Sequence record: OR352954
Reading direction: 5' to 3' (one strand)
DNA: 64,000 nt
Source of the DNA: Escherichia phage AV124
The translations under genes and the position numbers were made by a program. Positions 5,502 to 19,818 of this stretch are shown here, piece after piece. Every line of letters begins with the position of its first letter. The first letter of the stretch is position 1. Under the pieces are notes generated by a model that searched no databases, was not told where the DNA came from, and saw only the letters and a list, made by a program, of their open reading frames with translations.

Positions 5502-5876
5502 ATGAGAGATCGTCAGGAGTATTATCGTCAGTATGCCGCCCGTCGTCGTGAGATTGATCGTCAGCGGCGTTCTACACCAGAAGGTAAAGCAGAACAACTT
5601 CGTATCCGTCTTGCCCGTATTGAAGCAGAGAAACGCGCTACCCTTCATAGTGAGTGGGATGAGTTTGTCAGGGATGAGGCTGATCACTTGTGTTCTGTTC
5701 GTTGTGAAGATACTGGTATCAAGTGGGAACCAGACCACATGCTACCACTAAGGGCAACCAAAGTATCCGGCCTTAACTGTGGTGATAATATACAGGTGAT
5801 ACCTGCAACTCTCAACAGGAAGAAGAAAAACCGTATGATTTATACCGAAATGAATGAATGGTTGAAAGATGTATAG
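5502..5876 (+). CDS. HNH endonuclease
   Basis: WEPDHMLPL...GLNCGDNIQVIPATLNRKK resembles the HNH His-Asn-Asn core; SD AGAGGAG. Confidence 0.5.
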   Translation: MRDRQEYYRQYAARRREIDRQRRSTPEGKAEQLRIRLARIEAEKRATLHSEWDEFVRDEADHLCSVRCEDTGIKWEPDHMLPLRATKVSGLNCGDNIQVIPATLNRKKKNRMIYTEMNEWLKDV

Positions 5877-5908
5877 AAAAAACCCGGCGATTGCCGGTTT
5901 TTTTTTTA
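5877..5908. terminator. bidirectional rho-independent terminator
   Basis: A6-CCGGC-GATT-GCCGG-T10; stem-loop flanked by A-run and T-run between convergent genes. Confidence 0.65.
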
Positions 5909-6202
5909 TTGACCTTTGGATAGCTTTTCTATCACGAGATGGTCTGAATCATCCAGGTGCATCAGGTGATCAACTCGGATATCATGCAGGTATGGGAGTC
6001 CATCAACGTGGCAAAGAAACCATGATTCGTGACGAGGATAATATCCATTTACACCGAGAACGGTCTTCTCCAGCACAAGACAACGTTTACCGTTAAGGAT
6101 ATTATTCTCCGAGAATCCATACAACAGGCAGATTGAATCAACACAAACCTTATGGTCTGGCTCATTACGATCAGGCATACCACTATCTTCTAATTTCAGC
6201 AT
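5906..6202 (-). CDS. hypothetical protein
   Basis: Minus-strand ORF inside plus-strand block; overlaps upstream ORF by 7 nt. Confidence 0.4.
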   Translation of the reverse strand: MLKLEDSGMPDRNEPDHKVCVDSICLLYGFSENNILNGKRCLVLEKTVLGVNGYYPRHESWFLCHVDGLPYLHDIRVDHLMHLDDSDHLVIEKLSKGQ

Positions 6203-9511: not shown

Positions 9512-9940
9512 ATGATAAAACATTGCCATAATTGCAGTGCCTGTTGTGAAGTTATCGCCATAGATAACATCACGCACGAAGAATTTCACGAAAAGGTCAG
9601 GACCGGAAGAGTATCGGCTATCCACGGGGAGATGATGAAACCAATCTCCAGGGATGAGGCCTACAAACGGAATCCTCTTGTTGTTACAGGTCGTGAAGAG
9701 GTTGGTAAAGGAACAAAACACTTCACCAGCTACTTTACCTGCACAAAGCTGAAAGACAACAAGTGCTCAATATACGGGGATCGCCCGTACATGTGCAGCG
9801 GATATCCGTTCTATGACCGAGTGCCTGTGGACACACAATCACATGCTTCTCTGTGCAAGACACAGCTTCGCAGGAAGGACACCCCGTACTCCTCAACATG
9901 CACGTATGTCCCAAACCTGATCGCAGTCAAGAATATCTGA
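9512..9940 (+). CDS. YkgJ-like putative zinc/iron-chelating protein
   Basis: CHNCSACC near N-terminus and GDRPYMCSGYPF resemble the CxxCxxCC / RPxxC signature of the YkgJ family. Confidence 0.4.
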   Translation: MIKHCHNCSACCEVIAIDNITHEEFHEKVRTGRVSAIHGEMMKPISRDEAYKRNPLVVTGREEVGKGTKHFTSYFTCTKLKDNKCSIYGDRPYMCSGYPFYDRVPVDTQSHASLCKTQLRRKDTPYSSTCTYVPNLIAVKNI

Positions 9941-9950
9941 CCCACACAAC

Positions 9951-9981
9951 AAGGGAGCCTGAAGAGGCTCCTTTTCTTTTA
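9951..9981 (+). terminator. rho-independent terminator
   Basis: GGAGCCT-GAAG-AGGCTCC stem-loop followed by TTTTCTTTT, directly after last plus-strand gene. Confidence 0.6.
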
Positions 9982-9993
9982 TCTAAATTTTCC

Positions 9994-10022
9994 TTGACGT
10001 AAACAGTCAGCCCTGATATAGT
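9994..10022 (+). promoter_or_regulatory. sigma70-like promoter (TTGACG-N17-TATAGT) reading into ORF-poor region
   Basis: Hexamers with 17 nt spacing just past the terminator. Confidence 0.35.
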
Positions 10023-10834
10023 CATTATACGCCAAATCTCCTGAAGCGGGAGGATACAATCACCACCCCTGCGTGAAAGGTTGCACATCCCATTAACACA
10101 CATAATATGAAGGGTCTCCCCGATATGTCGATAAAACACCATTTCATAAACACATTGCCGTAACGTGTCGATGCCATAAACATTACGGTGCGAAGCACTT
10201 TGCCAAAGGCAAAAACCTCCGGTGCTATAAATATATCGCCTTGGGCGATTAGCCAGAGGCTAACCCGTACACGGGTAAATATATCGCGTAAACAGGCCCC
10301 TGTTTTCCCCGTATAACCACCCCTTCCCCCCGTGGGGAAATCAAAACATACCCCCTGCCGAAAATATCACTTGCCGAAAAATATCATGGCTTGGTCCTTG
10401 GGTAAAAAATATTGTATTCGCACCATCTGCGGTGTTAGACGGACAGCTCCGGGCGTCAACTATCTTTACGGATCTTTACAAAATATCATGGGCAAGGTCG
10501 ATCCGGTTCCCGGTTCCTCGGGGCCTCTTCAGGCATGATAGTTACTTGCCGAAACTAATAATAATTGGGTGTGTCAGATAGCAAGCTTATGGTTTGCCAG
10601 CTTAGAGCACGATTTGCTATTGACTTGTTTATATTTATATGAATTACACCATTTAACATAAAACACGTTATACGCACTGACCAACAACGCATAGCAGACT
10701 AATAATGCCCCAATGTTACCAGTGTGACGCATAGGACAGCCGCTTCAGGTCATTACATGGTGTGACTGTTACTGTGGTGATAGTTTCATATGTGATTATT
10801 CATGTTTTAGGGTTGTTTTGTGAATGAGACGACG

Positions 10835-10889
10835 AATGAGAATCATTATTATTTCGATTTCGAATTCAATTTCGAAATGAGAATCATTC
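10835..10889. repeat. two copies of palindrome AATGAGAATCATT flanking TTCGA-rich palindromic core
   Basis: AATGAGAATCATT at 10835-10847 and 10877-10889; related copies at 19711-19723 and 19744-19758. Confidence 0.6.
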
Positions 10890-11179
10890 CGCAAATATAA
10901 ATATTTTGTAAATTTATAAATAAAAGCTTGACGAGGGAAGAGAATCGTGTTTAGCAATACATACTCTTTGAGCATCATTATCATTTGCGACTAATTCCCA
11001 TAAACCCTTGCTACGCAAGGGATTGATAGATATTTTCGATAATAAAAACACTTGACACTTCAGATAAAATCATGCTCAAAAACAAGCCTTTTCTCATAAG
11101 ATACGATCATCATTCTAATGGTTTGTCAACCATTAAACACGAATTAATTTGATTAAACTGCTAATTGTTTACAGGGTTT

Positions 11180-11530
11180 ACTATCATCAGCGACACAATA
11201 ACACAATGCCCTTCGGGTTGTTTTCGCCACGGAAAACAATGTCCAGATTGACCAAAGGGGTTTTGTGAATCCCCTTTATCTGGACACAATAACACTAGGG
11301 CGATCAACGATAGTTGATCGGTGTTATCGTGGCGATGTGATAAAGTTTCATTGCTAATCATTACAGATGTAATGATAATATACTGTGATAATTTCGTCCT
11401 TGATCGTAGCGTCTACGAGCCACGATAACGCGAACGAGAATGCGATTTGTTCGCATTTGAGTTACCCTAGTGTTATTGTGTCGCTCGCTCCGCTCGCGCC
11501 ACTCCCCACGATTCGCGAACGAGAAATTTT
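11180..11530. repeat. nested inverted- and direct-repeat cluster (origin- or operator-like)
   Basis: GGACACAATAACACTAGGG (11283) vs reverse complement at 11464; GATCAAC-GATA-GTTGATC; GTTATCGTGG vs CCACGATAAC; CGAACGAGAA twice; several GC hairpins. Confidence 0.55.
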
Positions 11531-12142
11531 ATTGACAGAAAATGATTTCTATGCTCATAAAAAGCCAGTTCACACAATGAGTTAGATGAGGAAAGTTATC
11601 ATTATAGTGATTTATGCTCATATTCACTTCCAGTGCATAGAAATTCATGATTTATTCAGTTAATAACATGCGTTATTAATTAGGTGGGGTTGTGGGGTGA
11701 AAAGCCAGGACCGACACACAATTAAACGCAATATAAAGCGTTTTGAGCGTGGTTATCGGTTACCCTCATCATGGTATGTCTTGTGTTAGATCTCAATTAT
11801 GCACTTTTTTGCATAGCGGCGGGGCCGTGGTGTGGGTTGTTTATGGTGTGGATCTGCAAAGAGAAAAGCCAGGTAAAAACCTGGCCTTTGTGTGATTGTC
11901 TTATGACTGGCTAGCCATATTGTTTTAGATAGTTTACAGCGGAAATTATTGCTTGTGCTCGGCTGTACTCTTCGCCGTTCACACGATAGCGCCGCGCGCC
12001 TTTATGGCACTGGGTGATCATAACCTGGATTATTCCATCCATAACATAGAATGCTTTACTTACGAATAAAATCATCTGATACTTTGCAACCGTGATCCGT
12101 GGCGTATGTTATCGCGTCATCAATTTTTAACATGTCACAACC

Positions 12143-12355
12143 TCATTCATTGATTAGTTTAAATTCCGCTTCAGGGTGATAAAGATCAGCCATATAGCGC
12201 ATTTTGTAATAGAAAGATACTTCCACAATGTGAGGCGCTTCGATTTCTATTTGTGTGATGAGAACGCTACCCGGCTTAAATCCTGGGGCGATGTCCGGTA
12301 ATTCGATAATCATTCCGCCTTTTAAATCTTTCGCTTTTACAGTTCCCATGATCAT
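12143..12355 (-). CDS. hypothetical protein
   Basis: First ORF of leftward block; ATGA overlap with upstream gene. Confidence 0.45.
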   Translation of the reverse strand: MIMGTVKAKDLKGGMIIELPDIAPGFKPGSVLITQIEIEAPHIVEVSFYYKMRYMADLYHPEAEFKLINE

Positions 12356-12585
12356 TAGCCTTTTTTACGTTTCATTACTTTGATCGCTTTTATGCCTTTT
12401 TGTTCGAAAAATTCCGGGCTTCGCAATTGTGCGGCACTGCTACGGCTTTTTACCTTAGTAGACAATACACCATAATAGCGCCCGTCATCATACTGACCAA
12501 TAAAATAAAAATCGTTTACGCCATATTTTTCATCCCCTGCTTTCTGGATGATTTCGGATAACTTGTCAATACTAATATTAATCAT
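12355..12585 (-). CDS. hypothetical protein
   Basis: ORF in co-directional minus-strand array. Confidence 0.45.
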   Translation of the reverse strand: MINISIDKLSEIIQKAGDEKYGVNDFYFIGQYDDGRYYGVLSTKVKSRSSAAQLRSPEFFEQKGIKAIKVMKRKKG

Positions 12586-18703: not shown

Positions 18704-18795
18704 TGCTTTTTACCTCGATTTATCGCGGCCCTTGCCGCCTGAGAAAACACTTTAGCAAGGGCGCTAACTGAAAGCAAGCGCCCAGGGTAAAATAT

Positions 18796-18963
18796 TTTAT
18801 TTAGCTAGTGATAAGGTTTTTCCGTGGTTGATCCCAGGGATAACCCATTGCCCGGCGCCATCTTTAACAGGCTGACGTAAACGCGCCGCCGTGGTTACCT
18901 TGCTGTTAACATTACGGGCAAAAGCGCGGGCCTGGTCACGGGTAGTAAAAGAAATATTTTTCA
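18796..18963 (-). CDS. hypothetical small protein (55 aa)
   Basis: ATG after GAAGAGG on minus strand; below track cut-off. Confidence 0.3.
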
Positions 18964-19252
18964 TGTTGTAGCCTCTTCAGTAGATGTAATTTTGTTTTGC
19001 CCTGGATTTTGGAGATCCTCACCTTTCCGGGCCAGATTGAATCCTCATCGCTTGCGCTTTACTCCACGCCCCACTATTTCAACCGGGGGCCTTGGATTCA
19101 CCCCGCCCCGGTGAGATGAATATTAAGTGATAGCGATCCCCGCGTCAATCCCCTGGATGAAAATAAATTAAAAATATTTTTGTTCGTGTGGGCTTGCGCC
19201 CCGGCCTGGTTAGTGTACTATATAAGGACTCCCACAAATAAAGGTAAACGAA

Positions 19253-19438
19253 ATGGAAAACGCAAAAGTGATAACGAGTGAAACAATGGTTACCCTTTCC
19301 ACCTGGGAGACGGAAAGCGCAGCGCCCCAGGTTAGGATCGTGCCTTTACCCTTCGCGTTGAAAATGTATAATGCAGGATTTACCAGGGTGAGAATTGTTG
19401 CGGAAAATGGGGAAGTGATCGCGGACTCCTGGGAGTAA
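19253..19438 (+). CDS. hypothetical small protein (plus strand, within minus block)
   Basis: ATG after AAAGGTAAACGAA; promoter-like TTGCGC-N16-TACTAT upstream. Confidence 0.3.
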   Translation: MENAKVITSETMVTLSTWETESAAPQVRIVPLPFALKMYNAGFTRVRIVAENGEVIADSWE

Positions 19439-19818
19439 AAAATATTTTATCACGGGGCTTGCAAACGGCCCCGACCTGGGTTATATTTATCAGACAGGAG
19501 AAGAGACGCCACCCCCACGGCGGAAAGGCGGGGCTAACATACCAGGCGCGGCGATCTGGTTGGAAGGTGGATCGCCGGTAGCTCGCCTTAAGCCTGTTTG
19601 TAAAGAATTGTAAAGACGATTGCAACCGGGGGTAGGATATACTATATTATACACATAGCGGGAACATTGAAACCGGAGTACAAAACACCGGGGGTGCCTA
19701 TCATTCAGCAAATGAGAATGATTACCATTCAAATAACTAAATAAGAATGCTTCTCATTCAACAAAAAATTTAAATATTGACTTCTGATTTTTCGTGTGAG
19801 ATACTGAGCGATACCCCT

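Follow-up and report, generated by a model that had tools for sequence, protein, structure and literature searches.

Predicted genome terminus and conserved folded element in the gene-free region of Escherichia phage AV124

The window analysed here, i.e., a 64,000-nucleotide (nt) stretch of Escherichia phage AV124 (record OR352954), raises the question of what occupies its longest gene-free region. Between positions 9941 and 12354 it contains no open reading frame (ORF) of at least 75 amino acids (aa), and this run of 2,414 bp compares with 602 bp for the second-longest one. A previous sequence-only reading had described 9941-12142 as ORF-poor, which these values bear out, and had suggested a replication origin, a packaging site or genome terminus, or a locus for non-coding RNAs. 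The second suggestion is correct, since the 514-bp terminal repeats of phages KPP-1 and DP map without gaps onto 10438-10951. According to this homology, the interval is very probably one assembly-collapsed copy of a 514-bp direct terminal repeat (DTR), and the region represents the terminus, or concatemer junction, of the Mydovirus chromosome. A separate folded element is located further right, at 11281-11484.

Both the region and its flanks match Mydovirus phages (Vequintavirinae) of Klebsiella, Raoultella, and Proteus, which have genomes of ~145 kb and show 85–97% identity; KB57, Ro1, DP, and KPP-1 form the group to which the window belongs. More distant matches are found among Seunavirus phages of Salmonella, Cronobacter, and E. 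coli. The two flanking blocks of small genes are transcribed convergently, and each is closed by a terminator (9951-9974 and 11868-11885, respectively). As had been read, a terminator follows the last rightward gene, whose end is at 9940. The leftward block, however, does not stop at 12143 as proposed but continues to 11911 with a 77-aa gene on the minus strand (11911-12134), and the noncoding span proper is ~9941-11910. Genes flanking the region have PHROG family matches with E-values of 6e-82 and 2e-46, and none of the 6 longest internal ORFs matches PHROGs or Pfam.

Position of the terminal repeat

Three independent placements in relatives are concordant. For KPP-1 (MT438396), a close relative in which the repeat was mapped experimentally, a 514-bp DTR at 116,316-116,829 is reported on the basis of approximately twofold read coverage and PhageTerm, and the phage is classed as T7-type (PMC9862379). 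The DP record (OP296941) has an annotated 514-bp repeat_region at both ends, the two copies being identical. Aligned to the window, the DP repeat covers 10438-10951 with no gap and 95.1% identity, and the KPP-1 DTR does likewise with 94.0%, so that length and base-exact boundaries are the same, as is the layout of flanking genes. The KP12 record opens exactly at GACGGACAGC, which is position 10438. The window itself holds a single, strand-neutral copy of the DTR, as expected because an assembler collapses a terminal repeat.

Conservation delimits the same interval. Aligned with 10 Mydovirus relatives, the 514 bp contain no gap, are 92–100% identical, and form the best-conserved part of the region. 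To the left of ~10427 identity in this alignment drops to 57–68% and indels are present; to the right of 10951 the relatives diverge into 2 unrelated haplotypes, directly after GTGTT. In the plus direction of the window, 10438 would be the first and 10951 the last base of the packaged chromosome, so that both flanking small-gene blocks would be transcribed toward its ends. That the region is a terminus is already known for relatives within the genus, and this part of the analysis is an ordinary finding; the published accounts of Mydovirus DTRs, which cover length and position, do not include the internal anatomy described below.

Several points weigh against the assignment. The ends of this phage itself are predicted from relatives that are 94–95% identical across the repeat, and no terminase gene was identified in the 64-kb window. 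Older papers described rV5, PVP-SE1, and PhiTE as circularly permuted. In the Seunavirus record SEW_6S (PQ002171.1), the two ends overlap exactly over 91 bp, and this overlap is equivalent to window positions 11192-11282 rather than to the predicted 515-bp repeat. Finally, alignments give homology and geometry, from which we infer how cutting proceeds, what part the 12-bp sites presented in the next section play, and that the repeat is duplicated. As for the SEW_6S overlap (L010, 1-91, and L011, 2410-2500), it may be either an assembler overlap or a real end; the SalP219 record also starts within ~35 bp of this point.

Regarding other explanations of the whole region, it is unlikely to be mainly a replication origin whose repeats serve as initiator-binding iterons. 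AT-rich, repeat-dense DNA between convergent genes, with short repeats clustered at 10228-10386 and 10835-10888, would suit such a function. However, nothing links these repeats to an initiator, GC skew in these phages tracks the direction of transcription (according to both the rV5 paper and the skew calculated here), and the best-conserved interval coincides exactly with the mapped DTR. Repeated 13-mers, which might resemble iterons, are stem arms of the folded element and change freely in its distant copies. No match to the DnaA-box consensus (TTATNCACA) was seen by eye in 9600-12500, no pattern search having been run. Although disfavored as the main function, an origin nearby is compatible with the terminus.

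Decayed or unannotated coding sequence is highly improbable: several relatives do annotate small ORFs inside the region, and a real gene at its right edge (the 77-aa gene mentioned above) is a fresh pseudogene, but the small-ORF annotations of different records are mutually inconsistent, indel lengths are not multiples of 3, no PHROG or Pfam match is found, and apart from this broken gene no ORF stays open across relatives. Within the DTR, the 83 variable sites are distributed over the codon phases as 25, 30, and 28, i.e., without periodicity, the longest frame open in all relatives does not exceed 48 codons, and variable codons mostly alter the amino acid. A gene hidden in the repeat was rejected on the basis of these values and the lack of a PHROG or Pfam match. 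Two records (L003, OY978796.1, and L014, OY757067.1) carry features over the region that are named terminase large subunit, major head protein, etc. and are flagged as pseudogenes; this OY-series annotation is apparently out of register with the sequence and was disregarded.

Cut sites and predicted packaging

Both boundaries of the repeat lie in conserved islands, which is the pattern of fixed, sequence-specific cuts. The left-cut island, GTCTGnnGTGYTA/GACGGACA (a slash marks the cut), is kept in Mydovirus and 4 Seunavirus phages, and the right-cut island, CTTGACA-N13/14-GTGTT followed by the cut and TAGCA, is kept in Mydovirus, 4 Seunavirus phages, and the Erwinia Henunavirus. The spacing between the islands, and hence the repeat, is 514 bp in Mydovirus and 515–516 bp in Seunavirus, even though the sequence between them is ~71% identical and contains indels. 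Immediately outside the left cut (10432-10437, plus strand) the window has GTGTTA/ and most relatives have GTGCTA/; outside the right cut (10952-10957, plus strand) it has /TAGCAA, the reverse complement of which is TTGCTA/, and from there rightward the relatives fall into the 2 haplotypes mentioned above. The outer bases therefore show mirror symmetry, with GTGYTA/ on the left and /TARCAA (reverse complement TTGYTA/) on the right.

Inside the repeat, a 12-bp site, TTTACAAAATAT, is located at 10475-10486 on the plus strand, 37 nt from the left cut, and its inverted copy (ATATTTTGTAAA when read on the plus strand) at 10901-10912 on the minus strand, 39 nt from the right cut. The inverted pair is perfect, and both its sequence and the distances of 37 and 39 nt are invariant in 18 of 18 genomes from 2 genera, with the bases between each cut and its site varying between genera. 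By comparison, any inverted repeat of at least 12 nt appears in 27 of 3000 shuffled DTR sequences. Owing to the inversion, either physical end shows the same site in the same orientation ~38 bp from its tip. The 12-bp sites together with the mirror-image bases outside the cuts are therefore candidate recognition sites, which may position the terminase for both cuts.

The following packaging model would be consistent with this layout. Replication would produce concatemers having one repeat copy between successive genomes, as in the T7-type scheme; the terminase would recognize the junction and cut between 10437 and 10438 and between 10951 and 10952; and DNA synthesis would duplicate the repeat, providing a copy at both ends of each packaged genome. 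Convergent gene blocks stopping at their terminators would leave ~2 kb of cis-acting DNA. For the T7-type model itself, one repeat per concatemer junction, duplication coupled to cleavage, and a hairpin intermediate have been reported (PMC4281155).

Other short repeats accompany the cuts. The palindromic 13-mer AATGAGAATCATT is present in 2 copies 41 bp apart (10835-10888, plus strand), which flank TTTCGA-type repeats. These are its sole exact copies in the window; they fall into the most conserved part of the DTR (98–100%) and are largely kept in Seunavirus. Tandem TGCCGAAA(A)ATATCA repeats occupy 10356-10386 on the plus strand, 52–82 bp outside the left cut, and are 92–93% conserved; CGAAAA(A)TATC is found to the left of the cut in Seunavirus too. 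Both groups are candidate accessory sites. Separately, 3 near-copies of AATGAGAATCATT with 1–2 mismatches lie within 50 bp at 19711-19758, reportedly in another short ORF-poor stretch (18778-19379).

The repeats on which the sequence-only reading had relied fare differently. The TGCCGAAA and AAAATATCA motifs do flank the left cut and are conserved: 3 of the 4 copies of the TGCCGAAA core in the whole window are found in the region, with the third at 10547 inside the DTR, as are all 3 copies of AAAATATCA, the third of which (10480) is inside the DTR as well. However, instead of the 3 copies of an 11-mer that were claimed, exact TGCCGAAA(A/C)TA occurs twice (10356 and 10547), the copy at 10372 having an extra A. 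The repeat AAATATATCGC indeed has 2 copies, at 10229 and 10277, and no others in the window. ATAAAC is repeated as stated, but its enrichment is mild (5 found vs 1.3 expected). Next to the left cut, at 10410-10437, a ~27-bp unit (TTCnCACCATCTGnGGTGYT) is single in the window and Ro1 but duplicated in tandem in most relatives.

The folded element

The element at 11281-11484 (plus strand, ~200 nt, single copy) forms a four-way junction and is conserved in 3 genera. Its closing stem, P1, is an 18-bp perfect inverted repeat (11283-11300 with 11465-11482), which encloses hairpin P2 (11301-11322), the 13-bp stem P3 of invariant sequence (11323-11335 with 11419-11431), and hairpin P5 (~11436-11462). 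Hairpin P4 sits in the AT-rich variable loop closed by P3, and the arms meet with almost no linker nucleotides.

Run unprompted on 17 sequences, RNAalifold reports the same fold with 12 compensatory pairs. When the structure is specified by the authors on a plain MAFFT alignment, 98.4% of the cells pair, compared with 94.1% in shuffles and 23–48% when the partners are slid; 11 pairs change on both sides (at most 7 in slid controls), and on 4 of 5 measures none of the 500 shuffles reaches the observed value. Once distant copies were included, MAFFT misaligned P1, and its alignment was replaced by an alignment to a covariance model. Among 20 sequences of the 3 genera aligned in this way, 25 of the 60 pairs (12 of 18 in P1) stay paired through two-sided changes, and none of the 500 shuffles reaches the observed value on any of the 5 measures, although this alignment was itself fitted to the model.

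The covariance model finds one copy in the window (216.6 bits); the Erwinia phage pEp_SNUABM_01 and a 148.8-kb viral contig each contain a full-length one. In both of these distant copies, 21 bp of wholly different sequence pair perfectly to form P1. Thus, the fold is kept by structure rather than by sequence in Mydovirus, Seunavirus, and Henunavirus, and it always lies a few hundred bp inside one genome end. The coordinates of the distant copies are 2594-2808 in L032 and 5842-6087 (minus strand) in L031. A metagenome scan with a 17-mer returned 50 loci, of which 6 are real, all on contigs of the same phage group.

Two other interpretations of repeats in this element were rejected. The 13-mer GACACAATAACAC was considered as an iteron or protein-binding site, but distant copies carry unrelated yet complementary sequence instead. 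A miniature inverted-repeat mobile element, to which the 18-nt inverted repeat might point, does not agree with one copy per genome always in the same syntenic place.

As for the molecule that folds, the window copy gives −93.5 kcal/mol and z = −11.2 with RNA parameters, and z = −10.7 with DNA parameters. Across the alignment there are 60 G.U cells (9 positions) vs 4 A.C cells (3 positions), an invariant U.G pair in P3 becomes C-G in the 2 distant copies, and the plus-strand fold is 14.7 kcal/mol more stable than that of the minus strand. The asymmetry between G.U and A.C together with the difference in stability indicates that the plus strand is under selection. This speaks against a symmetric double-stranded cruciform and does not separate RNA from single-stranded DNA. 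On the present evidence the element is most likely a small non-coding RNA, or otherwise a single-stranded DNA structure involved in replication or end processing.

The RNA explanation, tentatively placed first although still somewhat short of an even chance, is that a structured non-coding RNA is transcribed from the plus strand early in infection and acts as a decoy, regulator, or replication primer, which is compatible with the terminus. It is favored by the covariation in 3 genera around a four-way junction, the low z-score of the RNA fold, the excess of G.U cells with the U.G to C-G change in P3, and the more stable plus strand. Insertions are tolerated only in loops, as illustrated by Mydo, where 53 nt are inserted exactly in the P5 loop, and the related phage PhiTE expresses a non-coding RNA (PMC3475682). 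However, single-stranded DNA tolerates G.T wobbles as well, and the literature search found no expression data.

Signals for transcription of the element are also limited, since neither a conserved promoter nor a conserved terminator was found for it. The TTGACA-type hexamers named in the sequence-only reading are present at 11052 (not 11053) and 11532, but they are not enriched (3 vs 2.1 expected), and neither has a −10 element at usable spacing. A possible phage promoter class, TTGACA-N12/13-YATGCT, was rejected as well because its single match (0.79 expected) is at chance level. Downstream, the GC-rich invariant 3′ flank (11493-11527, plus strand) includes a small hairpin as well as another, imperfect copy of CCACGATWACGCGAACGA. 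In most relatives a T-run comes after this terminator-like hairpin; the run is weak in the window and absent in the 2 distant copies. Rfam 15 gave no match for 9900-12200 at gathering and E-value thresholds (E up to 1), and scans for tRNA and tmRNA genes, including ARAGORN, gave none either. Another small hairpin, ATGGTTTGTCAACCAT (11117-11134), is located ~60–150 nt upstream of the fold and is shared by Mydovirus, the Erwinia phage, and the L031 contig.

Alternatively, and with a somewhat lower probability, the fold may act as DNA, i.e., as a hairpin or four-way structure of the displaced plus strand that serves as an origin or priming signal or assists duplication of the DTR during concatemer processing. 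Its distance of 330 bp from the repeat boundary, the z-score obtained with DNA parameters, and the AT-rich variable center between invariant GC-richer arms are in line with such a role, as are the hairpin intermediate reported for T7 (PMC4281155) and the T7-like replisome encoded in the window, which comprises a DnaB-type helicase and a family A DNA polymerase (a PIF1-like helicase is encoded there too). Against it stand the strand asymmetry, which disfavors a symmetric double-stranded cruciform, the lack of true iterons (the repeated 13-mers are arms of stems, and distant relatives replace their sequence freely) and of DnaA boxes on inspection by eye, and the equivalent non-coding box of rV5, in which the covariance model has no match.

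Upstream of P1, the window carries a 91-nt insertion (11192-11282, plus strand), which splits the 5′ arm of this stem and consists of a duplicated 13-mer GACACAATAACAC and 78 nt folding into 3 hairpins. It is absent in every Mydovirus relative examined and 92–96% identical to Salmonella Seunavirus phages, whose flanks are only 70–80% identical. Direct repeats of 13 bp mark its edges, and one site is known. Either this is an ancient optional domain that slippage between its 13-mers has removed repeatedly, or genera have exchanged the segment. Closer to the DTR, at 11007/11008, a 68-nt insert beginning with CGTTACGGACCGGATACCCGGCAATGCTAAAGCATTG is present in KPP-1, KB57, KNP2, KpS8, BIS47, Mydo, and PVP-SE1 and absent in the window, Ro1, P8734, VLCpiM5b, and K23PH08C2, a presence/absence polymorphism that spans genera.

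Flanks, related systems, and implications

The left flank begins with the intrinsic terminator of the rightward gene block (9951-9974, plus strand), a 10-bp stem followed by a T-run, which is also flagged on the minus strand; its surroundings (9943-9987) are kept in all relatives. The promoter-like TTGACG-N17-TATAGT that had been noted as reading into the region is present at 9994-10022 on the plus strand, with TG before the −10 hexamer and agreement with the consensus at 10 of 12 positions. Relatives in Mydovirus and Seunavirus retain both hexamers and the distance of 17 bp between them but differ in the spacer sequence, as would be expected for a functional sigma-70 promoter. This predicted promoter reads toward the DTR and would drive transcription across the junction.

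Downstream of it, a block of ~160 nt (10029-10183, plus strand) is conserved in primary sequence, with 66–94% identity in KB57, KNP2, KpS8, BIS47, 4MG, and GAP31, and always adjoins the left DTR flank, even in relatives with extra genes further left. Indels of 2 and 19 nt exclude an ORF in this block. A small RNA expressed from the 9994 promoter was considered and rejected, since RNAalifold finds zero compensatory pairs in 10029-10200, which thus does not qualify as a structured element as 11281-11484 does, and the folding z-score of 10029-10320 is −1.45. The idea of a non-coding RNA locus therefore finds no support in 10030-10560, where the sequence-only reading had suggested looking for structure; it may hold further right, for the covarying conserved fold at 11281-11484.

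At the right edge, the terminator hairpin of the leftward block (11868-11885, minus strand) lies between an A-tract and a T-tract and could therefore act in both directions. It is predicted on the plus strand by the program, its minus-strand tail TTTTCTCT was read directly from the sequence, and the records of Mydo and PVP-SE1 have terminators annotated at the equivalent position. The adjoining small gene (11911-12134, minus strand) is intact, with 77 aa, in DP, P8734, and VLCpiM5b; in the window an 11-bp deletion splits it into pieces of 25 and 54 aa, which could also be a sequencing or assembly error of the source record. This broken gene and the 91-nt insertion distinguish the window from its Mydovirus relatives.

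In comparison with known systems, the arrangement shares with the T7-type short DTRs (T7, T3, and phiEco32 / SU10) a short exact repeat, unique ends, and one repeat per concatemer junction. Short repeat arrays beside the repeat and a promoter reading across the junction, as in the present region, are also reported for T7 (Dunn and Studier 1983). In contrast to T7, with which it shares no sequence similarity, the present phage is a myovirus of ~145 kb, and both flanking blocks point toward the ends, not away from the left end. To our knowledge, a symmetric pair of 12-bp sites inside the repeat is not known from T7. The element's long closing helix, 3 arms, and junction nearly without unpaired bases recall cloverleaf-like RNAs, Y-RNA-like RNAs, and the retron msr-msd; this is a likeness of shape only, given the lack of Rfam matches, and neither a reverse transcriptase nor another partner gene is found near the fold. 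A different short DTR, of 342 bp, is reported for a phi92-like relative (PMC12210895).

Two published genomes have comparable gene-free segments, both between convergent small-gene blocks. The 2.3-kb gap of PVP-SE1 is homologous to the region (72–80% identity) and has the cut-site islands, the 12-bp pair, and the folded element. The ORF-free box that the rV5 paper drew as non-coding at the equivalent position, in contrast, has no detectable similarity. The rV5 and PhiTE papers describe circularly permuted genomes. The conserved cut sites make circular permutation of PVP-SE1 doubtful and point to fixed ends in the PVP-SE1 group at least. If so, phages of this type, although published as circularly permuted, would in fact carry 515–516-bp direct terminal repeats.

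With the terminus being an ordinary finding, the interest of the region lies in the covariation-supported fold and in a testable geometry of end recognition. No description of a folded element, RNA, or origin at this place was found in the literature, and the same is true for the symmetric plan of sites. Taken jointly, it seems rather probable that the undescribed fold is a new non-coding RNA family or single-stranded DNA signal and that the DTR plan, with its mirror-image cuts and 12-bp pair, sets the ends in a ruler-like manner. The true ends matter for annotation, since many records of the group are opened arbitrarily, some with spurious ORFs across the repeat, and they are relevant to the engineering of therapeutic Klebsiella phages and to understanding how these phages package their DNA. 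Conserved cuts and symmetric 12-bp sites provide a testable model of how a large myovirus terminase may set ends 514 bp apart. The fold, in turn, is a candidate, backed by covariation, for a new RNA or DNA signal at the end of a phage genome, and its defined structure allows its function to be probed by compensatory mutagenesis.

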